DNA from: Nitrospirota bacterium
GTDB taxonomy: Bacteria > Nitrospirota > 9FT-COMBO-42-15 > HDB-SIOI813
Direction: 5' to 3'
Length of the DNA: 32,555 bases
Assembly (NCBI GenBank): GCA_016234155.1
Contig: JACRGZ010000013.1
Coordinates: 1 to 32,555, forward strand
The number at the start of each line of letters is the position of its first letter. Position 1 is the stretch's first letter. Position numbers and translations under genes: made by a program. Positions 2,154 to 31,723 of this stretch are shown piece by piece. The notes below the pieces were generated by a model. That model had not been told where the DNA came from. It did not search any database and saw only the letters and a program-made list of their open reading frames with translations.

Positions 2154-3631
2154 TCCTTTGAGTGATAACAGGTAAGTCTCCACCGGTCATATAGTTTTAC
2201 GGCGTCCTGTTCGGCGATTTTAGGGTTAAATGTCTTTGCAGCAGGAGTGAGCCTTTCCACAGATGATACCCCCTGCCAGACCCTCCGGCTGAGACCGGCC
2301 AGGAAGGCGACACCGAGGGCAATGGAGTCCCCTTCCCTTGCCTTGTTCAAGGGTCTGCGCAGAATATCTGCCTGAAACTCTAAAAGATAGGGTATGTCCG
2401 CCACCTTACCGTTTGCAATAATCCTTTTTAGGGGTATACGCCCGTCTGCCAGTACTACGTTGATGGTATCTTTTACCAGGAATGCGATAGATTCTACAGC
2501 AGCTCGTACCATATCCTCCCTTGCCGTAGAAGATTTAAGCCCGTATATACAGGTTGTATTGTTAGTATCCCGGTAAGGGGAGCCGGCCCCTGTGATGGAC
2601 GGGAACATGAATAAACGGCCTGCAGATGCCCTGCATAACTTATCAATATCATCATTCTGTTTGATAATACCGAGGTTGGTTTGCATCCACTCTAATATTG
2701 AGCCGGCCGAGTTTATGACACCTTCAAGCATGTATGTAGTATTATCGCCATTTGACCAGGCGATAGTCGTCAGAAGTCCGGGCAATAAAAATATCTTCTT
2801 CCCTGTATTGGTGAGGATAAAACCGGTACTATTATAATTTATATGGACATCCCCTTCCTGAAACAGGCCGTGTCCGATAAGTGAGGCCTGATGTTCTGCT
2901 GTAGATGCATGAATTGGTATGGTCTGTCCTTCTATTAATGCATCTCCATAGTGGACTGATGTAGGGAGGATAGACGGGAGGATCTCAGGAGGTATATTGA
3001 ATAGTTCAAGCAGTTCTTTATCCCATGATTTTGTAAAAATATTACACAGGAGTGTCTGTGCGGCGCTTGCGTGGTCTATTGTAAATGCCGCCCCTTTTGT
3101 AAGGTGCCACATCAGGTATGTATTTACCGGGCCGCACAGCAGTCGCCCTTTTTCCAGCAGCTTTTGTGCTGACTTTGTATTCTCTAATACCCACTTTATC
3201 TTTGATGCGGAATAGTAAGGGGATAAGATAAGTCCTGTCCGTTCACGGACTGTCTCACGATAATCCACCTTCTCTTTGCATATCTCTGTTCCACGGGGAT
3301 CGGTATAGCTTATGGAATTATAGATTGGTTTGCCTGTATCTTTATCCCAGAGTATTATTGTAGAGCGTTGTCCTGCAAATCCTGCAGCGGCTATCTGACT
3401 CTTTTTATTCCCTATCTTTTTAAATAATACCTTTATTGCGTTCTGCTGGCTTTTCAGTATATCGGCGGGTCTGTATTCAATCCAGCCTGATTTAAGCCAG
3501 CCTGATTTAAGATAGATGGGCCGCAGGGGGTGTTCCCCCTGGGCGATAATTTTACCTTTATTATCAATGAGAGTTGCCTTTGAATTTAAAGAGCCTTGCT
3601 CAAGTGCAAGGATATATTGGCCCATGGGCAT
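2132..3631 (-). CDS. FGGY-family carbohydrate kinase, glycerol-kinase-like but divergent
   Basis: The 499-aa ORF is colinear with GlpK-type kinases (GKPIYN, SPYYSASKIKW, LLTTIAW, EGVINSAGS, ITGAGSPY, ALGVAFLAG). Several positions I recall as catalytic or substrate-binding in GlpK are replaced: DQGTT->EQGSL, QRET->QRST, GDQQAA->AEHQAS, VDGG->ANGK. Confidence 0.7.
   Translation of the reverse strand: MPMGQYILALEQGSLNSKATLIDNKGKIIAQGEHPLRPIYLKSGWLKSGWIEYRPADILKSQQNAIKVLFKKIGNKKSQIAAAGFAGQRSTIILWDKDTGKPIYNSISYTDPRGTEICKEKVDYRETVRERTGLILSPYYSASKIKWVLENTKSAQKLLEKGRLLCGPVNTYLMWHLTKGAAFTIDHASAAQTLLCNIFTKSWDKELLELFNIPPEILPSILPTSVHYGDALIEGQTIPIHASTAEHQASLIGHGLFQEGDVHINYNSTGFILTNTGKKIFLLPGLLTTIAWSNGDNTTYMLEGVINSAGSILEWMQTNLGIIKQNDDIDKLCRASAGRLFMFPSITGAGSPYRDTNNTTCIYGLKSSTAREDMVRAAVESIAFLVKDTINVVLADGRIPLKRIIANGKVADIPYLLEFQADILRRPLNKAREGDSIALGVAFLAGLSRRVWQGVSSVERLTPAAKTFNPKIAEQDAVKLYDRWRLTCYHSKEWSKNFP
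3482..3511 (-). repeat. Perfect tandem 15-bp duplication inside the FGGY kinase CDS
   Basis: CCAGCCTGATTTAAG occurs twice on the plus strand, giving the duplicated LKSGW-LKSGW in the protein. Confidence 0.9.
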
Positions 3632-3762
3632 TTGTCCCTATTTAACTGTGAAATTCGGCTTATAATAACAATCTGGGTTTGCAAAGTCAACGATAGACTT
3701 TTCCGTATTTGTGAACTGAGGCACTTAGCTAATTTTTCAACCTCCATCTGACGATATAACTA

Positions 3763-3787
3763 TAGCCTGCCCTGAACTTGTTTCAGG
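3763..3787 (-). repeat. R3 hairpin module (CCCTGAAACAAGTTCAGGGCAGGCT), copy a
   Basis: It is 25/25 identical to the reverse complement of 22607-22631 and contains a 7-bp-stem hairpin CCCTGAA/TTCAGGG. Intergenic, upstream of the GGDEF-EAL gene. Confidence 0.9.
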
Positions 3788-3825
3788 GTCATCGTACAAA
3801 AACCCCGGTGGCTGGCCTGAAGAGC

Positions 3826-5538
3826 ATGAAAAAATCAATTACAAAACGGCGAAAAAGGATGGAGTCAGAAGAGCTCTACCGCTCGGTAATCGAGCAGGCA
3901 TCAGAGGGGATACTGCTCGTTTCAATTAACAATAAAAAGATCATAGAGGGGAATGCGGCCTTTAACAATCTGCTCGGCTACAGCAGCGGGGAAGTTGTTA
4001 ATATGAGCCTCTACGACATAATTGCAGAGGGGCGTGAGACTATAGACCTTGAGGTTGATCGTATCCTTCGGGAAAAAAGAGATATAAGGCTGTACCACAG
4101 GGACGGGTCTTACGTCTATGCAGAATTATCGGCTAACAGTATTACTTATAATGACCAGGATACGATGTGCCTTGTTGTGCATGATATAACTGAAAGGAAA
4201 CGTTTTGAAGAACAACTGATGTTTCAGGCAAATCACGACTCACTGACCGGGCTTGCCAACAAGGGCCTCCTCGAGGACCGCCTTAGTCAGGCTACAGCCT
4301 ACCAGAAGCGGAAAAATAACATACTTGCGATAATGCTCCTTGACCTCGACCGCTTTAAGGTCATTAACGATACCCTTGGCCACCCTGCCGGGGACATCCT
4401 TTTACAGGCTGTTGCTGAACGGTTGAAGGTATCTGTGAGGAGCTATGATACCGTGGCACGCCTCGGAGGAGATGAGTTTGTCATCGTTGTTACAGATGTC
4501 TTAAACACCAATGATGTCATTACTATTGCAAAGAATATCCTGAATCTCTTTACCACACCATTTACGCTAAACGGACAGGAGTTATTTGTTACAGCAAGTA
4601 TCGGGATATCTGTCTATCCATTTGACGGTGATAGCGTTGAACACCTCTTGATGAAGGCAGATACGGCAATGTATCATTGTAAGGGGCAGGGCGGGAACAA
4701 CTATCAGTTTTTTGCTGAAGATATGAACATAAAGGTGAGAGACAGGCTTACGCTGGAAACAAGCCTGCGAAAGGCCATTGATCAGGAAGAACTGATCCTC
4801 TATTATCAGCCTAAGGTGGATCTGACAACAGGGCGTATCTGCGGGATGGAGGCCTTAATAAGGTGGCGGCGTGCAGACGGCAAATTGGTCTTACCCGCGG
4901 AATTTATACCATTGGCTGAAGAGACGGGATTAATAATCCCCATAGGTGAATGGGTGCTGCGTAATGCCTGCAGGGACACCAGACGGTTGCTGGATAAGGG
5001 ATACTCCGGACTACGTGTTTCGGTAAATCTCTCCGGCCGTCAATTTGCGCAGCAAAACCTGGTTGAGATGCTGAAGGATGCCCTGACGGAGAGCGGCCTC
5101 GATCCGGGACACCTTGAATTAGAGCTGACTGAGAGCGTCCTGATGAAGGATGAAGAAGGGATTATCAAAAAGCTTTGTGCAATGAAAGAAACAGGGGTAA
5201 TGCTGTCTATTGACGATTTTGGCACGGGTTATTCATCCCTGAGTTATCTGAAAAGATTCCCGATAGACGAGATCAAGATTGACAGGTCATTTGTTCAGGA
5301 CATCACAAACAATCCTGATGGCGCTGCAATCGTTAATGCAATCCTGGCAATGGCGCATACACTCAAATTGCGGGTTGTCGCCGAAGGGGTCGAGACTATG
5401 GAGCAGGCGATGTTCTTAGTCGAGCACCGGTGCGAAGAGATGCAGGGGTACTACTTTAGCCCGCCGTTGCCGCTTGAGGCATTTGAAGAGATGCTCCGTT
5501 CCGGGAAGCAACTGACCGTAGCATCTCAGCACATCTGA
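3826..5538 (+). CDS. PAS-GGDEF-EAL c-di-GMP signalling protein
   Basis: PAS-like N-terminus. The GGDEF domain has an intact ARLGGDEFVIV motif. The EAL domain has EALIRW, DDFGTGYSSLSYL and the Q..GYYFS tail. The track start TTG 3778 lies inside repeat R3, so the first ATG (3826) is preferred. Confidence 0.85.
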   Translation: MKKSITKRRKRMESEELYRSVIEQASEGILLVSINNKKIIEGNAAFNNLLGYSSGEVVNMSLYDIIAEGRETIDLEVDRILREKRDIRLYHRDGSYVYAELSANSITYNDQDTMCLVVHDITERKRFEEQLMFQANHDSLTGLANKGLLEDRLSQATAYQKRKNNILAIMLLDLDRFKVINDTLGHPAGDILLQAVAERLKVSVRSYDTVARLGGDEFVIVVTDVLNTNDVITIAKNILNLFTTPFTLNGQELFVTASIGISVYPFDGDSVEHLLMKADTAMYHCKGQGGNNYQFFAEDMNIKVRDRLTLETSLRKAIDQEELILYYQPKVDLTTGRICGMEALIRWRRADGKLVLPAEFIPLAEETGLIIPIGEWVLRNACRDTRRLLDKGYSGLRVSVNLSGRQFAQQNLVEMLKDALTESGLDPGHLELELTESVLMKDEEGIIKKLCAMKETGVMLSIDDFGTGYSSLSYLKRFPIDEIKIDRSFVQDITNNPDGAAIVNAILAMAHTLKLRVVAEGVETMEQAMFLVEHRCEEMQGYYFSPPLPLEAFEEMLRSGKQLTVASQHI

Positions 5539-5540
5539 CC

Positions 5541-5638
5541 TTTTACTCATTGGACAGACCTGAACAAATCCAAAATCCTAAATTTATTCTACCTACACTT
5601 GAATCCTCGACCCCTCGACCCCTTGAACCCTAATTTTC
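5541..5638 (+). repeat. Mosaic of repeat fragments (T3, T4, T1, and the right arm of T2) between convergent genes
   Basis: TTTTACTCATT (T3-like), GGACAGACCTGAA (T4 half), CAAATCCAAAATCCTAAATTT (T1-like), and ACTTGAATCCTCGACCCCTCGACCCCTTGAACCCTAATTT (T2 right arm only). Confidence 0.75.
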
Positions 5639-5658
5639 ATTAAGGCTAAAGCCTGCGG

Positions 5659-6750
5659 CTACAGTCTTGCAGCGCTGTAAAACATATACCCTCCGATACC
5701 CATAAATATTATATTTGCCAGCCAGGCCGAAAGTATGGCCGGCAGATAGCCTGAATAACCTATATGTAGTGAGAAGGAGAAGGAAACCCAGTATAAGACA
5801 CTTATGGCGATGCATAATCCAACTCCGCCGGCAATCCCGCCGTACCTTTTTATATGGAAGGCTATGGACATCCCCAGGACAGACATTATAAACCCTGCAA
5901 AAGGGAAGGATGTCTTTGCGTACAGGTCTACTGCAAGCCTTTTAATCTCGTAGCCCTCTTTTTTTATCTTCTCGATATAATTTTTTAACGTTGCAAACCT
6001 TGTCTCGGATGCCTGGATTGTAACATGCCTGAAGTCCTGCGTTTTAAAGGGAAATGCTACAGGAAGTCTGTCAAAGTTATAGATCTTTAATCCCCCTGCC
6101 TTTTCTCCCTCCCCCCAAGTCCTCCTTATACCTCCCAGTAAAAACCACTCCCCGTTCTCTGATACAGCCCCTTTTGCTGAGATACTCTCCCTGATCTGAA
6201 AATCAGGTGTCAGATAGTATACATTGACCCGCCCCATTACCTTTTTGTCAGGGTCTATAAACCTGACATTGTAAATAGTATAGTTGTCAGCCTTAAGCCA
6301 GAGGCTGTCTTCTTTAAAGAACATCTCCCTCGGTCTTGCCTCAGCCATTCTCTTTATATCTTCAGCCTTCCTGTTTGTTATCGGCATGAGGGAATCATTG
6401 AGGAAAAATGCTGCAACTGATATGACAACTGTTATTGCAAGGACAGGGAAGGTGATGTTCCGGACACTTAATCCCCCTGAACGCATTGCTGTCACCTCAT
6501 TGTATTTTGCAAAGAGCCCTAAATTGAGAAACGATGCAAAGAGGATGGAGAGCGGGATTATGTAGTAGACAGCCTGCGGTAACCGTAAAAGGAAATAGCC
6601 ATATATGGTGTGAAGATCAGTATGGGCCTTCGTAAAATCACTCAGATTTTCAAAAACATCTACTACCATGTAAAGGATTGTCAGACCTGCTGCAATAAGG
6701 AGCAGTATTTTAATAAATTCTATGGTTACGTATCTTGAAATAATTTTCAT
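5659..6750 (-). CDS. lptG: LPS export ABC permease LptG (YjgP/YjgQ family)
   Basis: 363 aa, MKIISRYV.. N-terminus, multi-TM with a periplasmic beta-jellyroll-like insert. It is the second gene of an adjacent pair of paralogous permeases. Confidence 0.8.
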   Translation of the reverse strand: MKIISRYVTIEFIKILLLIAAGLTILYMVVDVFENLSDFTKAHTDLHTIYGYFLLRLPQAVYYIIPLSILFASFLNLGLFAKYNEVTAMRSGGLSVRNITFPVLAITVVISVAAFFLNDSLMPITNRKAEDIKRMAEARPREMFFKEDSLWLKADNYTIYNVRFIDPDKKVMGRVNVYYLTPDFQIRESISAKGAVSENGEWFLLGGIRRTWGEGEKAGGLKIYNFDRLPVAFPFKTQDFRHVTIQASETRFATLKNYIEKIKKEGYEIKRLAVDLYAKTSFPFAGFIMSVLGMSIAFHIKRYGGIAGGVGLCIAISVLYWVSFSFSLHIGYSGYLPAILSAWLANIIFMGIGGYMFYSAARL

Positions 6751-7915: not shown

Positions 7916-7953
7916 ACCCTCCCCCTTGATGGGGGAGGGTTAGGGTGGGGGTG
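7916..7953 (+). repeat. R1 G/C-run hairpin module, copy 2 (immediately upstream of the fdhE-like start)
   Basis: ACCCTCCCCC-TTGAT-GGGGGAGGG-TTA-GGGTGGGGGTG. Confidence 0.85.
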
Positions 7954-7956
7954 AAA

Positions 7957-9012
7957 ATGATGTCAAGAAACTTTTCAATATACAAGTCCTACCTTGACGA
8001 GCGGGGAAAACTGCATCCATTCATGCAGGACATGATCCTCTTCTACAAGGGGCTGATTGATATATGGGGTGAAGCCTCCCCTGACGACCTTTCTCCTTTG
8101 TTCCCCCCCCTCACTCAAGTTTTCCCCCCTTTTTTAAAGGGGGGTGAGGGGGGATTAAAGTGTATGCTCAACAAGGATAAAATCAAAGCCTTGGATTTTA
8201 CCAACAGCATAAGCGTCGCAAAGAAAATATTTAAATTATTCGAACAGGAGAAGAAAGATGCGGATATTGAATGTGCCGGCGCATCACCAGATGCCATTAT
8301 CGAATTTATAAAAGATGGCCTTGCCAGTGAGGAGAGATATAAAAACGCTATCCTTAAATGGATACTCAAGCCATCTTTTGAATACACAATAGGTAAGCTA
8401 AAAATAATTGGCCAAACTACCCTCCCCCCCTCGTTCATATCCCCTCTCCCCACCCCCCTCCATATCCTCCCCCCACACGGGGGGGAGGAAAAAAGCTTGC
8501 CCCCGAAGTATTTATCGGGGGGTGGGGGGGGTGATTTGCAGGGGGAGAGGGGAAGGGTGAGGGGGAGCAAATCGGTGAGGGGGAGCGTAGGCGGCATATG
8601 CCCCCTGTGCGCCTCCCCTCCAGGCATGGCCCTTGTCTATGCCCCTGGTGATGGAACATCTGATCAGCGCCTCCTCTCCTGCTGCTTCTGCGGATACAGG
8701 TGGCCTTATTCCATGACCGGCTGTCCGGCATGTGGCAATGACAGTCCGGAAAAGTTTGGTTTCTTTGTCGGGGATTCATCCCCCAAAGAAAGCCCAAAAG
8801 AACCCCCAAAAGAACCCCCAAAAGAAACTAATGACCAGGGTGTGCGTGCCGTAAGCTGTGAGGAGTGCAAGACTTATCTGAAGACCATCTTCATAGGATG
8901 CCGTGGTGACAACAGAGCCCCTGAGGACTTGGACATGGACATAGAAGACGTAGCTACCCTCCACCTCGATATAATAGCCAACCAGCGTGGGTACAAAGCC
9001 CTCTGTGGGTGA
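7957..9012 (+). CDS. FdhE-like zinc-ribbon protein carrying in-frame repeat insertions
   Basis: The C-terminal half follows the FdhE pattern: CPLC..(R)LLSCCFCGYRW..CPACG...VSCEECKTYLK...DMDIEDVATLHLDI...G. The track start GTG 7945 lies inside repeat R1, so ATG 7957 is preferred. No formate dehydrogenase genes are in the window. Confidence 0.65.
   Translation: MMSRNFSIYKSYLDERGKLHPFMQDMILFYKGLIDIWGEASPDDLSPLFPPLTQVFPPFLKGGEGGLKCMLNKDKIKALDFTNSISVAKKIFKLFEQEKKDADIECAGASPDAIIEFIKDGLASEERYKNAILKWILKPSFEYTIGKLKIIGQTTLPPSFISPLPTPLHILPPHGGEEKSLPPKYLSGGGGGDLQGERGRVRGSKSVRGSVGGICPLCASPPGMALVYAPGDGTSDQRLLSCCFCGYRWPYSMTGCPACGNDSPEKFGFFVGDSSPKESPKEPPKEPPKETNDQGVRAVSCEECKTYLKTIFIGCRGDNRAPEDLDMDIEDVATLHLDIIANQRGYKALCG
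8103..8153 (+). repeat. R1b nested G/C palindrome inside the fdhE-like CDS
   Basis: The outer stem pairs CCCCCCTCAC (8105-8114) with GTGAGGGGGG (8144-8153). The inner stem pairs CCCCCCTTT (8124-8132) with AAAGGGGGG (8136-8144). The 51 nt equal 17 codons. Confidence 0.8.
8441..8552 (+). repeat. R2 composite G/C palindromic element, copy a (inside the fdhE-like CDS; G/C-run flanks extend to ~8418-8595)
   Basis: The core CCTCCATATCCTCCCCCC-ACAC-GGGGGGGAGG-AAAAAAGCTTGCCCCCGAAGTATTTATCGGGGGGTGGGGG..ATTTGCAGGGGGAG matches the reverse complement of 26709-26820. The outer arms CCCCTCTCCCC and GGGGAGAGGGG pair. Confidence 0.85.
8782..8829 (+). repeat. In-frame tandem 12-nt repeat x4 (PKES-PKEP-PKEP-PKET) in the fdhE-like CDS
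   Basis: CCCAAAGAAAGC CCAAAAGAACCC CCAAAAGAACCC CCAAAAGAAACT. Confidence 0.9.
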
Positions 9013-9064
9013 ATGAGTGAATGGGTGAATGAGTAAAACCAATGATCCCATCTACCCATCTACC
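9007..9064 (+). repeat. T3 hairpin (GGGTGAAT/GAGTGAAT octamers), copy a
   Basis: GGGTGAATGAGTGAATGGGTGAATGAGTAAAACC .. CCCATCTACCCATCTACC. The fdhE-like stop TGA (9010-9012) lies inside it. Confidence 0.8.
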
Positions 9065-9068
9065 GATT

Positions 9069-9219
9069 GAGGCTCTTGCAAAAGTCCCCATTTTGTCATT
9101 CCCGCAGGGATTCTGAGCGGGAATCTGGTTCTAAGTGCTTGAAAAAGCATATCCCTCCCCGAGTGCTTCTATCGGGGATAGAAGATTTCGGGGATGACAT
9201 AGACTTTTGCAAGAACCTC
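9069..9219 (+). mobile_element. M1 MITE-like element, copy a (151 bp, 17-bp TIRs, GATT flanking duplication)
   Basis: The element runs GAGGCTCTTGCAAAAGT ... ACTTTTGCAAGAACCTC, with GATT on both flanks (9065-9068 and 9220-9223). The right ~70 nt are nearly identical to copy b. Internal hairpin ATTCCCGC/GCGGGAAT. Confidence 0.85.
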
Positions 9220-9245
9220 GATTTACCCATCTACTCTCAAAGCAC

Positions 9246-11153: not shown

Positions 11154-11301
11154 GGTAAAATCCTAAGCACTAAATCCTAAATTCTAAACAATATCAAATG
11201 ACCAAAATCCAAAATTCAAAACAGCAAGGCTTTAGAAGTTTTGAACATTTGGATTTAGGATTTTGAATTTGTTTAGGATTTAGATATTAGGATTTAGGAT
11301 T
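11154..11301 (+). repeat. T1 long imperfect hairpin built from AATCCTA-type heptamers, copy a
   Basis: The left arm is AAATCCTAAGCACTAAATCCTAAATTCTAAACAATATCAAATGACCAAAATCC. The right arm is ..GAATTTGTTTAGGATTTAGATATTAGGATTTAGGATT. It starts right after the stop at 11153. The arms are shared with 31572-31711. Confidence 0.85.
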
Positions 11302-11318: not shown

Positions 11319-12269
11319 TTGGGCGGACGGAATAAAATAACCATTATCGGCGCCGGCAATGTAGGGGCCTCTACGGCCCAGAGGGTGATGGAGAAATCCC
11401 TGGGGGATGTGGTGTTAATAGACGTTGTAGAAGGGATCCCTCAGGGTAAGGCGCTTGATATCTTAGAAGCTGCCCCTTTAAGCAATGCCGATGTAAGTGT
11501 CACGGGAACAAATAGTTATGATGAGACCGCAGGGTCTGATATTATTGTTATAACGGCAGGACTTGCAAGAAAACCCGGTATGAGCCGGCGGGATCTGTTA
11601 GAAAAAAATGCCAGGATAGTAAGGGATGTTACTGCAGAGGCTGTAAGACACTCACCTGACGCAATACTTATCGTTGTAACAAACCCCATGGATCTTATGA
11701 CATCTGTATCATGGAACGTCTCGGGTTTTCCAAGTCATCGTGTGATAGGGATGGGTGGTGTGCTTGATTCATCCAGGTTCAGATGTTTTATTGCCTCCGA
11801 ACTTAATGTATCAGTAGAGAATATACATGCCTTTGTACTTGGCGGTCATGGAGACCTCATGGTGCCGCTGCCGAGATTTTCCACCGTCGCCGGTGTCCCG
11901 ATAACTGAGATATTGTCAAATGCCCGGATAGACAAGATGGTGGAGCGTACAAGGTCTGGCGGCGGCGAGATCGTGGGGCTTCTTAAGACGGGGAGCGCCT
12001 ATGTGGCGCCTGCGGCGGCGATTACAGAGATGGTGGAGGCTATTATTCTTGACAAAAAGAAGATAATGCCATGCGCAGTGTATTTAGACGGGGAGTATGG
12101 GGTGAAAGACATGTTTGTTGGTGTGCCAGTAAAACTGGGGAAGAAAGGTGTAGAGGAGATTATTGAGATAAAGTTTACGGATGAGGAGAGGGAGGCGTTT
12201 CTTAAGTCTGTTGACAGGGTCAGGAGCGGAGTAGATGAGGTAAAACAAATCCTAAATCCTAAATCCTAA
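11319..12269 (+). CDS. mdh: Malate dehydrogenase (LDH-like family)
   Basis: [13 protein letters not shown] Rossmann motif, VVTNPMD, and ~316 aa. The TTG start sits 5 nt after AAGGAGG (11307-11313). The last 8 codons and the stop lie in a repeat. Confidence 0.85.
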
Positions 12270-12377
12270 ATTATTGGTAAGGGGTCAAGGGGTCAAGGAT
12301 TCAAGGGGTCAAGTGATATTAATTCACTTGAATCCTTGACCCCTCGACCCCTTGAACCCTAATTTAGGATTTTACCG
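12243..12377 (+). repeat. Nested composite hairpin: T1-type outer arms around T2 (GGGGTCAA octamer) inner arms
   Basis: The sequence runs AAATCCTAAATCCTAAATCCTAAATT .. GGGGTCAAGGGGTCAAGGATTCAAGGGGTCAAGTGA-TATTAA-TTCACTTGAATCCTTGACCCCTCGACCCCTTGAACCC .. TAATTTAGGATTTT. Confidence 0.85.
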
Positions 12378-13239: not shown

Positions 13240-13799
13240 AAATAACTACACCCCTTACAGACAATGTTATCACAGGACTTAAGGCAGGTGACAGGGTAGA
13301 GATAACAGGCGTCTTATATACTGCCCGGGATGTGGCGCACAAGCGGCTTGTCCAAATGATTAAAGAGGGGGAGAAGTTACCCTTTGATCTCAGAGGACAG
13401 ATTATCTATTTTGTGGGTCCGACACCTGCAAAACCAGGGATGCCAATAGGTTCTGCCGGTCCTACAACAAGCGGGAGGATGGACCCCTATTCCCCTTATC
13501 TTATTGAGCAGGGTCTTAAAGGGATGATCGGAAAGGGTGGGAGGTCTAAAGAGGTCGTTGATGCAATGGCTGAACATAAGTGCATATACTTTGCCGCTGT
13601 CGGCGGCGTTGCGGCGCTCCTTTCAAAGAAGATAAAGAAGGCAGAGGTGATTGCCTTTGAAGACCTCGGGACAGAGGCAGTCAGGAGATTAGAGGTAGAG
13701 GACTTCCCGGCGATCGTAATAAATGATATTTACGGTGGAGACCTCTACAAAGAAGGCGTAGCCAGGTATTCCAGCCCCCCGAGTAGCCGCATCCTTTAG
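13236..13799 (+). CDS. Class I (Fe-S) fumarate hydratase, beta (C-terminal) subunit
   Basis: GPTTSGRMD and IGKGGR are motifs of the beta type. It has an ATGA overlap with the alpha subunit gene. Confidence 0.8.
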   Translation: MKITTPLTDNVITGLKAGDRVEITGVLYTARDVAHKRLVQMIKEGEKLPFDLRGQIIYFVGPTPAKPGMPIGSAGPTTSGRMDPYSPYLIEQGLKGMIGKGGRSKEVVDAMAEHKCIYFAAVGGVAALLSKKIKKAEVIAFEDLGTEAVRRLEVEDFPAIVINDIYGGDLYKEGVARYSSPPSSRIL

Positions 13800-13809
13800 G
13801 TAGGATGCG
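13788..13809 (+). repeat. Hairpin CGCATCCT-TTAGGT-AGGATGCG with the fumarase-beta stop codon in its loop
   Basis: Perfect 8-bp stem. The TAG at 13797-13799 is in the loop. No U-tract follows. Confidence 0.7.
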
Positions 13810-13847
13810 AAATTTACACAGACCCAGCGCAGGGGTCATCCCCCATT

Positions 13848-13878
13848 ATTTTGGACAGACCTGAAGGTCTGTCCCTAC
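13848..13878 (+). repeat. T4 palindromic 31-mer ATTTTGGACAGACCTGAAGGTCTGTCCCTAC, copy a (nested in outer stem GGGTCATC/GATGACCC, 13833-13893)
   Basis: The 9-bp stem pairs GGACAGACC with GGTCTGTCC. It is identical to the reverse complement of 15348-15378. Confidence 0.9.
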
Positions 13879-13910
13879 GTCTCCCGATGACCCTACACCC
13901 TAGACTATAG

Positions 13911-13929
13911 GCCGGCCATGAAGGTCGGC
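13911..13929. repeat. R4 hairpin GCCGGCC-ATGAA-GGTCGGC (intergenic)
   Basis: 17/19 identical to 381-399. Confidence 0.75.
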
Positions 13930-14033
13930 GCTGCAGGCATAGCATATTCACATAAGGTTTATGCAAAATTCGTGCTTAAAATCCTTTACTTGAATTTTCG
14001 TTTGTGTTATATTTCATTTTATCTAATAAGCCA

Positions 14034-14594
14034 ATGGATATTTCAAGAAAATGGAAGTATATCGGGATAATCTGTTTTCTCTTATTTGTTGTCATTCTTA
14101 CAGGGCTTTTAAAGGGGAAAGAGGAAGGGAAGGGTGAGCGGTTAGAGACAGCCGTGCTTGGAGATATAGTGCAGCGCATAGAGAATTTTCACCTTATACG
14201 TTTTAAAGGTGAAGATGTGGAGTGGGAAATAGCGGCAAAAAAGGCGGTGATACATAACGGAGAAGATGATGCCTCACTTCAGGAGATAGGGATTACTCAT
14301 AACCCGTATAATGGAGAGCCAATCAGGCTTACAGCAGAGAGAGGAAGATACAACATAGATTCAAATGCCTTTCTTTTAGAAAAGGTAGAGAGGGAAGTAG
14401 ATGTAAAGATTGGCGAAGGTCTTACGATAAATGTCGGCAGCCTTTCGTGGTCTGAAGATGACAGGGAGATATGGGGTCCCGGGAAGGTGCTGTTAGTGGG
14501 CCAAAGATTTATACTTGAAGGAGAGGACCTTATAGCGAATCTGGATAAAGGGGTGTATGAGATTAAAAATAACATCCGGGCGGCTATGTGGTAA
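14034..14594 (+). CDS. lptC: LPS export protein LptC-like (single N-terminal TM anchor)
   Basis: MDISRKWKYIGIICFLLFVVILTGLL anchor followed by a beta-rich domain. It lies immediately upstream of lptA-lptB-rpoN, the canonical order. Confidence 0.6.
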   Translation: MDISRKWKYIGIICFLLFVVILTGLLKGKEEGKGERLETAVLGDIVQRIENFHLIRFKGEDVEWEIAAKKAVIHNGEDDASLQEIGITHNPYNGEPIRLTAERGRYNIDSNAFLLEKVEREVDVKIGEGLTINVGSLSWSEDDREIWGPGKVLLVGQRFILEGEDLIANLDKGVYEIKNNIRAAMW

Positions 14595-14633
14595 TTGGGG
14601 TGGTAATTGGGTAATGTCAAATGTCAAAATTCA
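14589..14633 (+). repeat. Tandem 12-mers (TGGTAATTGGGG/TGGTAATTGGGT) followed by heptamers (AATGTCA x2, AAATTCA)
   Basis: Read directly. The lptC stop TAA (14592-14594) is inside the first 12-mer. Confidence 0.8.
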
Positions 14634-14635
14634 AA

Positions 14636-14786
14636 GAGGCTCTTGCAAAAGTATAAAAATGTTGTCATTCCCGCATGGTTTAAGCGGGAATATAGTGTTT
14701 TATTACAGAAAATCATATCCGTCCCCGAGTGGCTTCTATCGGGGATAGAAGATTTCGGGGATGACATAGACTTTTGCAAGAGCCTC
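14636..14786 (+). mobile_element. M1 MITE-like element, copy b (151 bp, perfect 17-bp TIRs, CAAA flanking duplication)
   Basis: The element runs GAGGCTCTTGCAAAAGT ... ACTTTTGCAAGAGCCTC, with CAAA on both flanks (14632-14635 and 14787-14790). It lies between lptC and the body of lptA. Confidence 0.85.
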
Positions 14787-14810
14787 CAAAGTTCAAATTA
14801 TTTTAGGATT

Positions 14811-15323
14811 TTGATTTTCATCTCTGGATTTTGTTTAATATTTTTATTTAATTCTTCAACAGTAAGGGGAGAAGAGTCGCCGGTTACGAGGTTCATCAGT
14901 CAGGGGGAGGAAGGGGCGCTCTCTATAACATCCAGGAAGATGACCCTCAAGAACCAGGAGAATACGATACTGTTTGAAGGGGATGTTGTTTTAGAGCGCG
15001 GCTCAATGAGGTTAAAGGCCAGGAGGGTAGAAGCTGTGTTCACATCGCTGCCGGAGGGAGAGCAGGGTTTATTTGAGAGTGCAGATAAAAAAAGAGGGCT
15101 TTCTACTATTACTGCTACAGGGGATGTCGAATTTATCCAGGGTTCCAGAACTGTCCTTTCAAACAAGGTCATTTATTTTAAAAAAGATGAGAGGATGGTC
15201 TTTACAGGCTCACCGAATATCCGGGAAGGTAAGGATGAACTCAAGGGTGAAAAGATCACAGTCCATATACTGGAGGACAGGGTTGTGGTAGAGGGAGGGG
15301 AAGCAATTATACATCCCAGGTAG
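14811..15323 (+). CDS. lptA: LptA (OstA-like) periplasmic LPS transport protein; 5' end interrupted by the M1 element, functional start uncertain
   Basis: OstA-N-like body (ITSRKMTLKNQENTILFEGDVVLERGSMRLKARRVE.., ATGDVEF.., TGSPNIREGKDELKGEKI). The track ORF 14607..15323 reads through the 151-bp M1 repeat. TTG 14811 is the first conventional start after M1 but has poor SD spacing. See findings. Confidence 0.7.
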   Translation: MIFISGFCLIFLFNSSTVRGEESPVTRFISQGEEGALSITSRKMTLKNQENTILFEGDVVLERGSMRLKARRVEAVFTSLPEGEQGLFESADKKRGLSTITATGDVEFIQGSRTVLSNKVIYFKKDERMVFTGSPNIREGKDELKGEKITVHILEDRVVVEGGEAIIHPR

Positions 15324-15347
15324 GGCTAAGTTAGGGTGAAGAAAGAT

Positions 15348-15378
15348 GTAGGGACAGACCTTCAGGTCTGTCCAAAAT
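15348..15378 (-). repeat. T4 palindromic 31-mer, copy b (inverted), between lptA and lptB
   Basis: It is 31/31 identical to the reverse complement of 13848-13878. Confidence 0.9.
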
Positions 15379-15391
15379 GGCGGCAGGTTAA

Positions 15392-16165
15392 ATGGCAACG
15401 CTTAAAGTAGAAAATATAGAGAAGATTTACAAGGGCCGTAAGGTAGTGGATAAGGTAAGCCTCACATTAAACAGGGGTGAGGTGGTAGGTATTTTAGGGC
15501 CTAATGGGGCTGGTAAGACCACGATCTTTTCCATTATTATAGGTATCTTAAAACCCTCTGCCGGCCGGATATTCTTAGATGATACCGAGATAACCTGCCT
15601 CCCTACTTATAAGCGTGCACGCCTTGGGATATGCTACCTTCCCCAGGAACCATCGATTTTCAGGAAACTTACAGTAGAAGAGAATATTATGGGAGTCCTC
15701 GAATTTCAAGACCTGTCTTCATACGAACGTCATGACAGATTAAATCAGCTTATCAGGGAACTCAATGTAGCCCATCTTGCCAGGCAGCCGGCCAATACCC
15801 TTTCGGGTGGTGAGAGGAGGCGGGTAGAGATTGCCCGTTCGCTTGCCTCATCGCCCACATTTATCTTTCTCGATGAGCCCTTTGCCGGTATAGACCCCAT
15901 TTCTGTAACAGACCTGCAACAGATAATCCTTCAGTTAAAGGACAAAGATATAGGTATATTAATAACGGATCACAATGTTAAGAATACACTTGAGGTCTGT
16001 GACAGGGTATATATATTAAATGAGGGTATTATTTTAAAATCAGGAACTCCGTATGATATAGCTGCAAGCGCTGAGGTTAGATCTACCTATTTGGGAGAAA
16101 GGTTCAGGTTAGAACCAGAGCATACTGTGCCGGAGCATATCCCAGAGCATATAATAGACAGATAG
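15392..16165 (+). CDS. lptB: LPS export ABC transporter ATPase LptB
   Basis: Walker A GPNGAGKTT, signature LSGGERRRVEIAR, Walker B FIFLDEPFAGIDP, and position between lptA and rpoN. Confidence 0.9.
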   Translation: MATLKVENIEKIYKGRKVVDKVSLTLNRGEVVGILGPNGAGKTTIFSIIIGILKPSAGRIFLDDTEITCLPTYKRARLGICYLPQEPSIFRKLTVEENIMGVLEFQDLSSYERHDRLNQLIRELNVAHLARQPANTLSGGERRRVEIARSLASSPTFIFLDEPFAGIDPISVTDLQQIILQLKDKDIGILITDHNVKNTLEVCDRVYILNEGIILKSGTPYDIAASAEVRSTYLGERFRLEPEHTVPEHIPEHIIDR

Positions 16166-19152: not shown

Positions 19153-19164
19153 TAGTATATGTGA

Positions 19165-19234
19165 AGGGTTCAAGGGTTCAAGGGGTCAAGGGGTCGAGGG
19201 GTCAAGTGAAATTCACTCGACCCCTTGACCCCTT
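19165..19234 (+). repeat. T2 hairpin (GGGTTCAA/GGGGTCAA octamers), copy in the 5' leader of the MerR-pil operon
   Basis: AGGGTTCAAGGGTTCAAGGGGTCAAGGGGTCGAGGGGTCAAGTGAA-ATTCACTCGACCCCTTGACCCCTT. The arms have unequal unit numbers. Confidence 0.85.
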
Positions 19235-21634: not shown

Positions 21635-22156
21635 GTGGCGGCATCAATTTTAATGATTATTTTGTTGACAATCGTTGGCTGTTCTGAACAGACGGTTCAG
21701 ACGCCAGGCCTGCAGCCGGCGACGCAGCAAGATATGAAGGGAAAACAACCTCCCCAGGCTGTTGCCCGGACATCTGTAGAAAGTGCGGCGGGGGAGGCAG
21801 CGGCCGCATATAGTTACAGGACCGGGGGGAGGAGAGATCCGTTCAGGTCACTGATTTTAGGGCTTAGAGAGAAAAAAACAGTTGGTCTCACGCCTCTTCA
21901 GCAGAGAAGTTTGGGAGAGCTCAAGGTAATTGGGATTATCTGGGGGAGCGGGGGGTATGTTGCAATGATAGAGACCCCGGATGGAAAAGGGTATTTAATA
22001 AAAGAAGGGGTTCTGATAGGTTCTGAGGGAGGGGTTATAAAAAAGATTACAGAGGATTCTGTAATCATCGAAGAGGTATATACAGATTATTATGGCAGAA
22101 AGATGTCTAAAAAGACCGTGTTAGGGCTTCATGCTAAAGAGGAGGGTGGTGGATGA
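21635..22156 (+). CDS. pilP: Type IV pilus assembly lipoprotein PilP
   Basis: Lipobox LTIVGC, ~170 aa, position between pilO and pilQ. GTG start. Confidence 0.7.
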   Translation: MAASILMIILLTIVGCSEQTVQTPGLQPATQQDMKGKQPPQAVARTSVESAAGEAAAAYSYRTGGRRDPFRSLILGLREKKTVGLTPLQQRSLGELKVIGIIWGSGGYVAMIETPDGKGYLIKEGVLIGSEGGVIKKITEDSVIIEEVYTDYYGRKMSKKTVLGLHAKEEGGG

Positions 22157-24876
22157 AGTTATTTAATTTTCATGGGATCATCTGTGCAGTATTTGCAGCC
22201 TTATGTCTTTCTGCATGTTCTCCAAAGGTTCAACAGGTGGTAAGCAGTGCAGAGGTCATAGGGGCTGTACAGGCGACTGCTATCCCAAGGCTTACAAAAA
22301 TTGAAGTGGACGATTTACCGGCGAGCACGCAGATTCTATTAGAGGCGGAGGATGTTTTGAATTATACATCCTTTAATCTCTCCGATCCTCCAAGACTGAT
22401 TATTGATTTGGCGGATATCTCCCTGGGAGAGTTTAAGGAACCTATATCAGTAAATAAGGGGTCTGTTATAGATATCTACCCTATTGAGGCAGATACCCCC
22501 GGGAGGATTACAAGGCTGAATATAAAACTCGTCAGTGATTCCGTAGAATCACAGATTTTCAGAAAGGACGGCACGCTTGTAGTAGATATTCCGAAGATAC
22601 CCCCAACCCTGAAACAAGTTCAGGGCAGGCTCTATCCCTCCCCCCTTGAGGGGGAGGGCAAGGGTGGGGGGGGTAAGGAGGAAGAAGTTACAGCAGAGGC
22701 TTTTGCTGTAGAACCTATTGCGGAAGTACCGCCTGTTGCAGGACCACTTGCTATAGAACTGCCTGTTGCAGAGCCTCTTGCTGCAGAACCTCCTGTCGAA
22801 GTGCCGTCCGTTGAGGAACCTCCTATGGAAGTAACATCTGTTGCAGAACCTCCTGTGGAAGTGCCGCCTGCGGCAGAATCCTATGCAGCAGAGTCTCCTT
22901 TACCTGCTCCTGTTGCTGGAGTTCCTGTGTCTGGGATGGTGGGCAATGTCCGCCCTACACCTGAGGCTTCTGTGTCAGAGACGACTGCAGTGCCGGATAC
23001 GTCTACAGCAAAAGCTGCTGTCTCAGAAGCGGACACTCCTCCTATACAAAAGGAATTCAACATTGTTAAAGATGTAAAGAGCCTTTCATCTGATGATAAA
23101 GACAGCATTGTTATTACCGCTGATAAAGATATTAATGCAGAGACATTTATTGTTGAAGGCGGCAAGTTAGTAGTTGATATAAAAGATGCGACCCATTCGA
23201 TTTACCCATCTGAGAAACCTGTTGAAAGCAGTTTGATATCAAAGATCAGGATCGGACTTCACCCAGCGCCGGTCAACAAGGTAAGGGTTGTTGCTGACCT
23301 CAAAAGGGAGATAAGATACGATGTCAGCAGACATGGGAGCGGTTTGACCATAGATATTTTTCCAAAATCCGGAAAAATAACGCTAAAAAAACCTGATGAG
23401 AAAACCATGTCTGACATTACCGGGGCATCTGCTGAAACCCCTTTGCAAAAAGGGGACGCATCCGTCAGCGCTCCTCCCGCTGACACAAAGGAATCTCCCG
23501 CAACTGTGACACCTCCGCCGGCTCCGTTAGCAGCAGCAATGAACACGGATAAGGTCGTTTCTGAGGTGTCAACAACTGAAGTAAGAGAAGAAAAGCCGGC
23601 GCCGCCTCCTCAAGTTACCACTAATGTGCCGGAGAAAAAGAACGGCACATATGCCAGCAAGAAGGTATCCCTTGATTTTCAGGACGCGGACATAGTGAAT
23701 GTCCTGAGACTGCTTGCAGAGGTAAGCAGGTTAAATATGATCATAGGGGATAATGTCAAGGGGAGGATAACAATAAAGATGCTGGATGTGCCATGGGACC
23801 AGGCCCTTGATGTGATCTTGAAGATGAAAGGGCTTGGCAAGATATTTGAAAACAACGTTGTCAGGATAGACACCCTTGCTAATATTGCCCAGCAACAGGA
23901 GGAGGAGGCAAGGGCAAAAGAGGCAATGGTCAAGGCAGAGGATCTGGAGACAAAGATATTTCCTGTAAATTATGCGCGGGGAAAAGAAGTCGCTGAATCG
24001 GTCAGAAAGACCCTGAGCGCAAGGGGTGATATTACGGTAGACGACCGCACAAATACCCTGATTATAAAAGACGTTAAGGATAAACATGAAGAGATCAGCA
24101 GGCTTCTTAAGGCGCTTGACAGGCCAACCCCGCAGGTTTTGATTGAGGCGCGGATTGTTCAGGCAGACACGAATTTCGCAAAAGACCTTGGAATACAGTG
24201 GGGGGGTGACTATTCTTCAAATCCTGGCAGTTACAATATAGGCGTTATCGGCGGGCCCACAGGAACGGTGGGAGCTCCAACAACGGGATTTGTAGTTAAC
24301 CTTCCGGCGTCCGGTGTGGCAGGGGCTAAAGGCAGTCTTGGTTTTACAATAGGGAAGACGGTAGGGGATGCCTTTAATCTTGACTTAAGGCTTTCTGCCG
24401 GGGAGACAAAGGGGTTAACAAAGGTACTGTCAGCCCCCAAGATTGCCACCCTCGATAACAGGGAGGCTACAATCCAGCAGGGGGAATCAATCCCGTACAA
24501 GACTGTGTCACAGGGTGGGACAAAGACGGAGTTTATTGACGCCACCCTTACACTTAAGGTGACCCCGAAGGTCACCCCCGATGGCCATATTGCGATGAAT
24601 ATCAAGATAACCAAGAACCGCCAGGGCTCGATAGTGGTAGAAGGGACACCCAGCATAAACAAGAAAGAGGCCACAACAGAGGTTCTTGTGAAAGACGGTG
24701 AGACGACAGTGATCGGCGGTATTTACGAGATTTCAGATGTAGATAATCTCAGTGCAGTCCCATGGGTTCATCAGGTCCCGCTGCTTGGATGGCTTTTTAA
24801 GAGCACACAGAAGTCAAATATCAAGAGTGAACTCCTGATATTTATCACACCTAAGATCATTCCTGTGACTTTATGA
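22153..24876 (+). CDS. pilQ: Type IV pilus secretin PilQ with AMIN domains and a long Pro/Glu/Ala/Val-rich linker
   Basis: Lipoprotein-type signal (LCLSAC), AMIN-like modules (..PPRLIIDLADI.., ..KLVVDIKDA.., ..GLTIDIFP), and a secretin C-terminus (VPLLGWLFK....ELLIFITPKII). Confidence 0.9.
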   Translation: MKLFNFHGIICAVFAALCLSACSPKVQQVVSSAEVIGAVQATAIPRLTKIEVDDLPASTQILLEAEDVLNYTSFNLSDPPRLIIDLADISLGEFKEPISVNKGSVIDIYPIEADTPGRITRLNIKLVSDSVESQIFRKDGTLVVDIPKIPPTLKQVQGRLYPSPLEGEGKGGGGKEEEVTAEAFAVEPIAEVPPVAGPLAIELPVAEPLAAEPPVEVPSVEEPPMEVTSVAEPPVEVPPAAESYAAESPLPAPVAGVPVSGMVGNVRPTPEASVSETTAVPDTSTAKAAVSEADTPPIQKEFNIVKDVKSLSSDDKDSIVITADKDINAETFIVEGGKLVVDIKDATHSIYPSEKPVESSLISKIRIGLHPAPVNKVRVVADLKREIRYDVSRHGSGLTIDIFPKSGKITLKKPDEKTMSDITGASAETPLQKGDASVSAPPADTKESPATVTPPPAPLAAAMNTDKVVSEVSTTEVREEKPAPPPQVTTNVPEKKNGTYASKKVSLDFQDADIVNVLRLLAEVSRLNMIIGDNVKGRITIKMLDVPWDQALDVILKMKGLGKIFENNVVRIDTLANIAQQQEEEARAKEAMVKAEDLETKIFPVNYARGKEVAESVRKTLSARGDITVDDRTNTLIIKDVKDKHEEISRLLKALDRPTPQVLIEARIVQADTNFAKDLGIQWGGDYSSNPGSYNIGVIGGPTGTVGAPTTGFVVNLPASGVAGAKGSLGFTIGKTVGDAFNLDLRLSAGETKGLTKVLSAPKIATLDNREATIQQGESIPYKTVSQGGTKTEFIDATLTLKVTPKVTPDGHIAMNIKITKNRQGSIVVEGTPSINKKEATTEVLVKDGETTVIGGIYEISDVDNLSAVPWVHQVPLLGWLFKSTQKSNIKSELLIFITPKIIPVTL
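22607..22631 (+). repeat. R3 hairpin module, copy b (inside pilQ, fused to R1 copy 3)
   Basis: It is an identical 25-mer, translated in frame as TLKQVQGR. Confidence 0.9.
22637..22673 (+). repeat. R1 G/C-run hairpin module, copy 3 (inside pilQ)
   Basis: CCCTCCCCCC-TTGA-GGGGGAGGG-CAA-GGGTGGGGGGGG, translated in frame as PSPLEGEGKGGGG. Confidence 0.85.
22780..22869 (+). repeat. In-frame tandem 30-nt repeat x3 in the PilQ linker
   Basis: The three units are GCTGCAGAACCTCCTGTCGAAGTGCCGTCC, GTTGAGGAACCTCCTATGGAAGTAACATCT and GTTGCAGAACCTCCTGTGGAAGTGCCGCCT. Confidence 0.85.
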
Positions 24877-24974
24877 GGGGTAAATGAGTAAATGGGTAAA
24901 TGAGTGAATGAGTATATGAGTAAAACCACCCATTTTACCCATCTACTCATTTACCCATTCACTCATTCACTCAC
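24877..24974 (+). repeat. T3 hairpin, copy b; fills the whole pilQ-aroC intergenic space
   Basis: GGGGTAAATGAGTAAATGGGTAAATGAGTGAATGAGTATATGAGTAAAACC-ACCCATTTTACCCATCTACTCATTTACCCATTCACTCATTCACTCAC. Confidence 0.85.
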
Positions 24975-26138
24975 ATGATTAGCTTTCTTACAGCAGGAGA
25001 GTCCCACGGCCAGCTTCTCTTAGGCGTCATCGAAGGCATTCCTGCCGGTTTGGAACTTGCCAGTAATGACATAAACATAGATCTCTCCCGCAGGCAGATT
25101 GGTTACGGCCGCGGCGGGAGGATGCGGATTGAGAAGGATCTTGCAGAAATTACCTGCGGGGTCAGATGGGGCAAGACCATGGGGGGGCCGATAGGGCTTT
25201 TAATAAGGAATAAAGACTGGGTAAACTGGTCAGACAGTATGTCACCGGACTCGTCCCTGTCAGGCTGTATCCCGCCTGAGACAAGGCCAAGACCAGGCCA
25301 TGCCGACCTTTGCGGCATCATTAAATATTCTCATGACGATATCAGAAATGTGCTGGAGCGGGCGAGTGCAAGAGAGACTGCAATGAGGGTGGCCATCGGC
25401 GCCGTGGCAAAGAGGTTTTTAGCGGTATTTAGCATTGAGGTCTTAAGTCATGTTACAGAGATCGGGGGGGAGAAGGCAAAGCTTCTTAATCGTCAGCTTG
25501 ATTCTATCATTCAGGATGCAGAGAGGTCTGAGTTTCGGTGTGGTGATAAAAAGGCCGGGGCAAGGATGCGGAAAAAGATAGATGAGGCCAAGAAAAAGGG
25601 TGATTCAGTAGGGGGTATATTTGAGATAATTGCCACAAACGTCCCTGTTGGATTGGGGAGTTACTCACAGTGGGACAGGCGTTTTAATGCAAAACTTTCA
25701 TATGCGGTGATGAGTATACAGGCGATTAAAGGTGTGGAGATTGGGATTGGATTTGAGGCGGCAAGACGGTTTGGTTCGGAAGTCCATGATGCCATCTATT
25801 ATGATAAGGTCAGACGCAGGTTCTACAGAAAGACAAACAGGGCAGGCGGTATAGAAGGCGGCATAACTAACGGCGAAAATATAATAATTCGCGCTGCCAT
25901 GAAGCCTATAGCCACATTATATTCACCTTTAGATTCGGTTGATATAAAGACAAAGAAACCTTTTAAGGCGTCTGTTGAGCGCTCTGACATATGTGCAGTC
26001 CCTGCGGCAAGCGTAGTCGGTGAGGCGATGATTGCGGTAGAGATAGCTAATGCATTCATAGAGAAGTTCGGCGGCGATTCGATGACAGAGATAAAGAGAA
26101 ATTACGAAGGATACCTTGAGTATATAAAAGAGATTTAA
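24975..26138 (+). CDS. aroC: Chorismate synthase
   Basis: [27 protein letters not shown], and 387 aa. Confidence 0.9.
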
Positions 26139-26708: not shown

Positions 26709-26820
26709 CCCCTCCCCCTGTAAATTGCCCCCCACCCCCCGATAAATACTTCGGGGGCAAGCTTTATTCCTCCCCCCCCTTGTGGGGGGGGAGGATATGG
26801 AGGGGGGGGGAGGGTTAGAG
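26709..26820 (-). repeat. R2 composite G/C palindromic element, copy b (intergenic aroK-aroB, inverted relative to copy a)
   Basis: Its reverse complement aligns to 8455-8552 at roughly 90% identity by eye. It contains C8, G8 and G9 runs. Confidence 0.85.
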
Positions 26821-26850
26821 CCACCCCCTGCATGTATTAATCAGGGGGTG
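26821..26850. repeat. 10-bp-stem hairpin CCACCCCCTG / CAGGGGGTGG adjoining R2b
   Basis: Perfect inverted repeat with a 10-nt loop (CATGTATTAAT region). Confidence 0.7.
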
Positions 26851-26908
26851 GGGGTGGAAATGGCCCATTCAGCATAGAATGGGCTTATTTATTTTGCCCG
26901 GAGGTTTC

Positions 26909-31711: not shown

Positions 31712-31723
31712 GATTATTTTCGT

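Follow-up and report, generated by a model that had tools for sequence, protein, structure and literature searches.

The question raised by this locus is how LptA can still be made when a transposable element separates the gene from the start codon that it previously used. LptA, which is essential in model diderms, bridges the periplasm in the export of lipopolysaccharide. The stretch of DNA analysed here, referred to as the window, comprises positions 1 to 32,555 of contig JACRGZ010000013.1 from the Nitrospirota bacterium assembly GCA_016234155.1. It carries lptC, lptA (OstA-like), lptB and rpoN in that order, with LptC, ABC ATPase and sigma-54 domains identified in the same order by Pfam, and this synteny is also found in relatives. 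Between lptC and the coding sequence for mature LptA lies a 151-nt miniature inverted-repeat transposable element (MITE), here termed copy b. Our analysis of the sequence indicates that the insertion has probably displaced the start of lptA rather than abolished the gene, and that LptA is still made from a substitute in-frame TTG codon, with the hydrophobic core and cleavage site of its signal peptide retained. The principal features are:

Positions 14034 to 14594, forward strand: lptC (Pfam LptC, 2.3e-09), with likely start ATG 14034 and stop TAA 14592-14594; gene calls in relatives are 186 aa.
Positions 14632 to 14635: left copy of the target-site duplication CAAA, flanking MITE copy b.
Positions 14636 to 14786: MITE copy b (151 nt), whose terminal inverted repeats at 14636-14652 and 14770-14786 match perfectly over 17 nt.
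Positions 14787 to 14790: right copy of the target-site duplication CAAA, flanking MITE copy b.
Positions 14808 to 14870, forward strand: hydrophobic core and c-region of the LptA signal peptide, ILIFISGFCLIFLFNSSTVRG, intact (read from the sequence and from alignment of homologues).
Positions 14871 to 15323, forward strand: mature LptA (OstA-like domain; PF03968, 1.4e-14) and stop codon, with neither a frameshift nor an internal stop.

Cleavage of the signal peptide is predicted before EES, by inspection and from the alignment of homologues. A first-pass annotation of this DNA had described the 151 bp as a mobile element with terminal inverted repeats and a target-site duplication, and its sequence statements and coordinates for the element, the reading frames and the reconstruction of the uninterrupted gene were all correct on rechecking.

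The mobile nature of the element is borne out by its perfect arms, the CAAA duplication, a second copy in the window and empty sites in relatives. The arms of copy b, GAGGCTCTTGCAAAAGT on the left and ACTTTTGCAAGAGCCTC on the right, are exact reverse complements (17 of 17 positions paired), and the window has four occurrences of the terminal-repeat motif where 0.09 would be expected, a number reached in none of 100 shuffles. The sister copy is:

Positions 9069 to 9219: MITE copy a, 151 nt, about 84% identical to copy b, intergenic and inside another short-unit hairpin repeat.

Copy a has its own target duplication, GATT, at 9065-9068 and 9220-9223. As RNA, copy b folds with -68.6 kcal/mol, and the region as a whole has a z-score of -6.2. 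No transposase-sized coding stretch was found in copy b, open stretches in the copies reaching only about 50 codons, and Pfam gave no domain match in the element part of the open reading frame (ORF) that reads through it. The promoter and terminator scan returned no site in or beside the element, and no sigma-70-like outward promoter passed. Positions 14636-14786 are a genuine MITE that arrived by real transposition. The perfection of the terminal repeats and of the duplication, the 98.7% identity of copy b to a copy in a groundwater Nitrospirae metagenome-assembled genome (MAG; L027) and the presence of the insertion in only one of six resolved alleles of the lptC-lptA junction argue that the insertion into lptA is recent.

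The empty site itself was recovered through the reconstructed protein. A search with that protein returned P0001, which has 185 aa, is 97% identical and begins MSNVKIQSSNYFRILIFISGFCLIFLLFNSSTVRGEE; its contig (L001) matches the window base for base minus exactly 155 nt, namely the element and one CAAA. Without these 155 nt the window reads AAAATT-CAAA-GTTCAAATT, the sequence of L001, confirming the earlier proposal that their deletion restores an ORF from ATG 14614. Four further contigs from the same 90%-identity protein cluster (L056, L057, L059 and L060) also have the empty site. Two of the five empty-site contigs encode the reconstructed N-terminus exactly or with one Gly-to-Glu change. 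The restored N-terminus thus occurs in nature, in P0001, P0059 and P0062, and P0059 (184 aa) has the window's own LIFLFNSS variant. The 151 nt are present in no relative, which rules out that they encode a conserved N-terminal domain.

Further length differences distinguish these alleles, here given relative to L056 and L057:

L060 allele: 42 nt longer.
L059 allele: 47 nt longer, including an 11-nt duplication and a 6-nt deletion.
L001 allele: 57 nt longer.
Window allele: the same 57 nt minus a 3-nt deletion, plus the 155-nt MITE insertion.
Positions 14589 to 14612, forward strand: 12-nt tandem duplication, TGGTAATTGGGG then TGGTAATTGGGT, in the older extra DNA that is missing from L056 and L057.

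In the alignment of alleles, the tandem duplication is absent from L060, measures 11 nt in L059 and measures 12 nt in L001 and the window. Five allele states among near-identical relatives mark the lptC-lptA junction as hypervariable. In another related assembly (L058; ENA ERZ28563660 scaffold_114379), a 100-N scaffold gap at 1350-1449 lies exactly over the junction, which fits population heterogeneity or repeat content at this site.

A multi-copy repeat at a junction across which a related assembly failed raises the possibility of a repeat-induced chimera, and the first-pass annotation had listed an assembly artefact among its explanations. A chimera joins unrelated flanks, whereas the flanks here are the contiguous lptC-lptA of five relatives, collinear on both sides, and the inserted DNA ends in complete terminal repeats within a perfect 4-bp target duplication. 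An artefact is therefore very unlikely.

Which start codon the element cut off depends on how far back the gene is traced. Two upstream ATG codons are relevant:

Positions 14557 to 14559, forward strand: lptA start ATG of the deeper ancestor, by orthology, within the 3′ end of lptC; its ORF is now a dead end of 63 aa.
Positions 14614 to 14635, continuing at 14791-14798, forward strand: repeat-derived ATG and first seven codons, from the 5′ arm of an A-rich/T-rich hairpin repeat.

In distant relatives (L051, L053 and L055) the lptA ATG lies inside the last 38-41 nt of lptC, giving MKLxKIFGxLCGN..., and the translation from ATG 14557 in the window, MRLKITSGRLCGN, aligns with MKLAKIFGRLCGN, with Met1 and Gly12 invariant. 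The very close allele P0060 (L056 and L057) also starts inside the lptC 3′ end (MRLKITSGQLCGS / MRLKITSGQLCGSEY...) and is without everything between that start region and the hydrophobic core. The gene calls of P0001, P0059 and P0062, on the other hand, start at the equivalent of ATG 14614, which falls within the 42-57 extra nt of an older, repeat-derived insertion. The first 23-30 nt of this extra DNA, ATGTCAAATGTCAAAATTCAAAG(TTCAAAT), are identical to the 5′ arm of a dispersed hairpin repeat of about 110-140 nt with one A-rich and one T-rich arm, an identity that points to this older insertion as the donor of ATG 14614. The exact 23-mer was found in 19 unrelated JGI metagenome contigs:

Loci L032 to L050: JGI metagenome loci with the dispersed hairpin repeat.

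At these loci the ATG of the repeat opens ORFs of only 10-51 aa (18 were readable to a stop), and the repeat is non-coding there. The scan of JGI contigs for filled and empty alleles was uninformative on allele frequency; its yield was the origin of ATG 14614. The L059 allele must use the equivalent of ATG 14614 as its working start, because the older ATG is out of frame there owing to the 11-nt duplication. On this comparison, ATG 14614 served as the start until the MITE arrived, and the deeper ancestor started at 14557. The first-pass annotation, which took ATG 14614 for the ancestral start and proposed to align orthologous lptC-lptA junctions, was right for the immediate pre-MITE gene, as P0001, P0059, P0062 and L059 indicate, but not for the deep ancestor. 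The junctions themselves gave the same divided answer: the 155 nt are absent in five relatives, and in distant ones the start corresponds to ATG 14557.

Intergenic hairpin repeats built of 7-8 nt units (xxTCAAA, AAATCCT, AAGGGGTC and GAATGAGT) occur elsewhere in the window, each with an A-rich or purine-rich arm and a complementary arm, and without an Rfam match; both MITE copies of the window lie inside short-unit hairpin repeats. Their positions are:

Similar hairpin elements: 5563-5636, 9004-9060 with 9220-9240, 11158-11301, 12243-12373, 19156-19233, 24877-24975 and 31570-31715.

The MITE was inserted after codon 7 of the lptA frame then in use, in the part encoding the n-region of the signal peptide. 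As the 155 added nucleotides equal 2 modulo 3, the native frame is broken. ATG 14557 and ATG 14614, which share a frame, now yield peptides of 63 and 44 aa, and the only ATG, GTG or TTG codons in the lptA frame before the hydrophobic core are three TTGs:

Positions 14746 to 14748, forward strand: TAG that ends the frame of ATG 14557 and ATG 14614 inside the element (ORF 14557..14748 of the ORF list).
Positions 14607 to 14609, forward strand: first lptA-frame TTG, directly after TAA 14604-14606; it opens ORF 14607..15323 of 238 aa.
Positions 14643 to 14645, forward strand: TTG inside the left terminal repeat, with GAGG 3 nt upstream (-5.8 kcal/mol) and an n-region of 55 residues.
Positions 14811 to 14813, forward strand: TTG with AGGA at 2-nt spacing (-4.0 kcal/mol); the NCBI start (P0058, 170 aa).

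The termination of the ATG 14614 frame at the TAG within the element had been correctly described. The earlier account of a read-through of the whole element from TTG 14607 also stood, as ORF 14607..15323, although it had missed the in-frame TTG 14643. TTG 14607 has a Shine-Dalgarno (SD)-like GGGGUGG that pairs to the 3′ end of 16S rRNA with -9.2 kcal/mol, only 3 nt upstream, and its precursor would have an n-region of 67 residues, with ten lysines or arginines, seven aspartates or glutamates, and an acidic patch near the core. The SD of TTG 14643 is buried in the terminal-repeat stem. At TTG 14811 the short spacing of AGGA and the missing charged n-region were both as first described: the product, MIFISGFCLIFLF..., has no lysine or arginine in its n-region and places Met directly before the core, against two such residues, by inspection, in the form restored from ATG 14614. 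The core, IFISGFCLIFLF, and the c-region, VRG before EE, are present in all versions of the precursor, as judged by inspection only. Genes in the window often do without a strong SD, the value for lptC ATG 14034 being +0.4 kcal/mol. P0058 is the sole cluster member matching the window allele and starts at TTG 14811, so public annotation uses this codon for lptA; automatic annotation has shortened LptA to 170 aa without flagging the element.

An ATA codon at 14766-14768 lies in the lptA frame, 4 nt after GGGGA and 3 nt before the right terminal repeat, and occupies the position of an ATG in a family member at another locus (L031, below). Speculatively, near-cognate initiation at this codon would give MDFCKSLQSSNYFR followed by the hydrophobic core, a well-formed signal peptide.

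Whether such an insertion can be tolerated is informed by the rest of the family. We searched a single genome of each species for pairs of terminal repeats 136-166 nt apart and found 30 further loci in 15 genomes, mostly Thermodesulfovibrionia/Nitrospirae MAGs, with 11 loci in Bacterium BMS3Abin06 alone. Together with the two copies in the window, the 31 copies at these loci make up the 33 copies analysed, which range from 130 to 166 nt; 18 of the 33 are flanked by an exact 4-bp AT-rich duplication and two by a longer one of 5-6 bp. The terminal repeats are common to the family, and the interiors form sub-families of 143, 151 and 155-166 nt with different small hairpins. Most copies are intergenic, and about 31% of frames across the 33 copies are stop-free; a stop-free frame through the element is therefore weak evidence of selection, and its use as the mark of a 'coding' MITE is weakened accordingly.

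Three of the 33 copies, namely the lptA copy in the window, L031 and L006, separate the start or n-region of a signal peptide from its hydrophobic core and leave the gene frame open throughout. The L031 copy (in the region 3400-5793 of PEUB01000014.1) is a 166-nt member inside the lipoprotein signal peptide of a pilQ-type secretin, where the insertion adds 174 nt, or 58 codons, in frame. An intact 797-aa ORF, opened by a strong SD and ATG, passes through this element in the same terminal-repeat frame as in the window (RFLQKY...DFCKSL) and runs on into LLLCSLLIAFWGC; the relatives L069 and P0064 have an uninterrupted MKKNILYYLLLY..LIAFWGC. The L031 element also has a strong SD and ATG of its own, 21 nt before its end, which would give MDFCKSL followed by the hydrophobic core. 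The L006 copy (JACRHB010000085.1, 3522-3664), a 143-nt member in the gene of a secreted protein of unknown kind, parts a putative TTG start (MSFQISYTKHILS) from the core and cleavage site (FVLIFLLTYLIASSQSWA before EQ). The frame is open through this element, with junction codons TCT-TGA on the left and TCT on the right, and there is no usable, canonical in-frame start, showing that such insertions can simply break genes. By a rough estimate, signal-peptide N-termini are encoded by 1% of a genome, a share that three of 33 exceeds; these are small numbers, and the surplus could reflect a bias towards AT-rich DNA close to gene starts.

No parent transposase was found between matching repeats in the fetched loci or in the viral-contig hits. 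Lone repeat-like matches in L014 and L022, considered as a parent element, proved to be ordinary genes, and the viral-contig matches were phage genes or more copies of the MITE. A protein search with the read-through peptide returned only four tiny hypothetical ORFs over other MITE copies, and no second filled lptA. Exact-protein look-ups with the window LptB and with the 170-aa LptA of NCBI returned no further contig. About seven of the 33 copies lie in or beside short-unit hairpin repeats, which is suggestive only of a target preference, as a plain preference for AT-rich DNA fits too. Single copies with identical terminal repeats were seen in a Thermodesulfobacteriota MAG (L012), a Candidatus Tariuqbacter MAG (L024) and a Bacteroidales MAG (L030); these could reflect horizontal spread of a mobilizing transposase or contamination in binning. 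G/C-rich palindromes CCCTCCCC..GGGGAGGG recur in the window at 7917-7960, 8448-8529, 22636-22679 and 26728-26863. The same module is found inside the MITE variants L004 and L031, which suggests that MITE interiors have been assembled from other small repeats.

The MITE thus landed after codon 7, duplicated CAAA, shifted the frame and cut off both upstream ATGs, and one of the TTGs probably now serves as the start. Among these, TTG 14811 is slightly preferred, a tentative choice that coincides with the NCBI call. Ribosomes may reach it via an AU-rich leader; alternatively, they may terminate at 14748 and re-initiate at TTG 14811, with translation of the upstream ORF melting the hairpin of the element. 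The product would have a very hydrophobic signal peptide without a charged n-region. Initiation at TTG 14607 or TTG 14643 with read-through of the element is only slightly less probable; it would give a precursor with an n-region of 55-67 residues. The lineage already has 14-19 extra n-region codons, and the putative read-through ORF of the pilQ-type gene in L031 can be counted for the tolerance of a long n-region.

Several observations weigh against a displaced start. The SD of TTG 14811 is weak and closely spaced, and no lysine or arginine precedes the core; the SD of TTG 14607 is also that of ATG 14614, which is better placed for it; the read-through n-region contains an acidic cluster, EDFGDDID, near the core, and its last 15 residues have a net charge of 0 compared with +2 in the restored form. 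Open frames through the element are, as noted, not rare in the family, and a similar insertion left the L006 gene with no usable in-frame start.

The main rival is an lptA that is non-functional or strongly impaired, a very recent and possibly deleterious allele caught in one MAG. Such an allele could persist as a sub-population variant, through a complementing second lptA-like gene, or where LptA is dispensable. The MITE is found in only one of the six resolved related contigs, the junction is polymorphic and hard to assemble, as the gap in L058 illustrates, and the L006 member has parted a secreted protein from any usable start. On the other side stands the strong constraint on LptA in the clade. 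Downstream of the element, lptA has 178 intact codons that differ from L001 by 13 synonymous and 5 non-synonymous changes, a dN/dS of 0.10 (0.19 for lptB and 0.15 for rpoN), and the mature LptA regions of relatives are 57-97% identical. This ratio shows that lptA matters in the lineage, not that the MITE allele works: the insertion is young, so an intact gene body says little of selection on this allele after the insertion. Consensus assemblies, however, usually represent whichever allele predominates, and a lethal one could not predominate. The gene also keeps three candidate start codons in frame, its hydrophobic core and its cleavage site, and no second lptA was found within the 32.5-kb window. 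On this balance we consider loss or strong impairment of lptA the less likely reading, though a serious one, and a displaced start the better account of the locus.

The CAAA duplication invites a different idea, namely that the 155 nt are skipped by translational bypassing or removed at the RNA level, restoring MSNVKIQ directly followed by SSNYF... The duplication provides matched in-frame CAA codons at the foot of a 17-bp perfect stem, so that peptidyl-tRNA-Gln could leave CAA 14632-14634 and land on CAA 14787-14789 at the base of the hairpin; the strong fold of the element and of the region would suit this route, and L006 has the matching codons TCT and TCT, with TGA directly after the take-off codon. 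The arrangement recalls the bypassing of T4 gene 60, in which matched codons likewise flank a structured, untranslated gap. In the window, however, the matched codons follow automatically from a 4-bp target duplication, no stop follows the take-off codon (the next codon is AGA), and nothing points to a nascent-peptide signal. The gap of 155 nt, not about 50 nt as in gene 60, is some three times the longest bypass known to us (T4 gene 60 and the yeast mitochondrial 'byps'). Excision from the RNA, another of the possibilities raised by the first-pass annotation, found no support: Rfam gave no intron, ribozyme or other match at E<=1 in 13500-16000, and a search of the whole window gave none at the gathering score. 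The family, with most of its copies intergenic, is not specialized for life inside genes, which counts against both routes. Skipping of the 155 nt by either route is thus highly improbable, and a hop from CAA 14632 to CAA 14787 by ribosomes that started at the old ATG (14614 or 14557) is even more so. If the hop were true, MITEs of this family could sit silently in signal-peptide-coding regions, as in lptA and perhaps the L006 gene, and the locus would parallel T4 gene 60 bypassing on a bacterial chromosome, across a gap three times any known.

In kind, the family resembles the Correia elements of Neisseria and the ERIC elements of enterobacteria, which are likewise about 100-160 bp long, have terminal inverted repeats and a target duplication, occur in many copies without a transposase, and form a long hairpin when transcribed. 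Such MITEs alter the expression of adjacent genes and are cut by RNase III at their paired terminal repeats (PMC10969869). The family described here differs in its own terminal-repeat sequence (GAGGCTCTTGCAAAAGT), its 4-bp AT-rich rather than TA duplication, its Nitrospirota host, its modular interiors of several sub-family sizes, and the lack of a detected promoter-like site. Rickettsia palindromic elements and intragenic ERIC copies are palindromes of about 150 bp that lie inside genes and are translated within the host protein (PMC10969869). The pilQ-type copy in L031, with its extra codons in frame, is of this type. The insertion in the window is not, because 155 nt is not a multiple of three, the native frame is broken and only a different, upstream TTG would read through; nor is the family as a whole, most of whose copies are intergenic. 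Insertion sequences and MITEs are also known to displace or donate the 5′ ends of genes, as hybrid promoters or new starts, and here too an element at the 5′ end of a gene would move the start of expression. The L031 element, with its own SD and ATG, would be of the start-donating type, whereas the copy in the window has ATA at 14766-14768 and no outward promoter in the scan. Literature searches returned no paper on the repeat sequence GAGGCTCTTGCAAAAGT or on MITEs in Nitrospirae; the family seems undescribed, although its kind is well known.

Two further observations concern the surroundings. A 35-nt inverted repeat, 97% complementary, brackets lptC-lptA at 13848-13882 and 15344-15378, each arm holding the palindrome GGACAGACC-TGAA-GGTCTGTCC; L001 keeps the downstream arm and has an extra small hairpin between lptA and lptB that is not in the window. 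Elsewhere, about 12 tandem 15-nt units at 22688-22900, inside a 907-aa ORF (22153-24876), would encode a degenerate pentapeptide repeat.

Overall, the lptC-lptA junction offers a natural allelic series, from no insert through 42, 47 and 57 extra nt to a further 155 nt on top, in which lptA first gained a start codon and n-region from a dispersed hairpin repeat and then had that start displaced by a MITE. If the allele survives with its earlier start codons cut off, it would show how much change is tolerated at the 5′ end and in the signal peptide of an essential-type gene. Together with the insertions in the pilQ-type and L006 genes, it suggests that AT-rich signal-peptide-coding DNA is a preferred and permissive landing site for this family.

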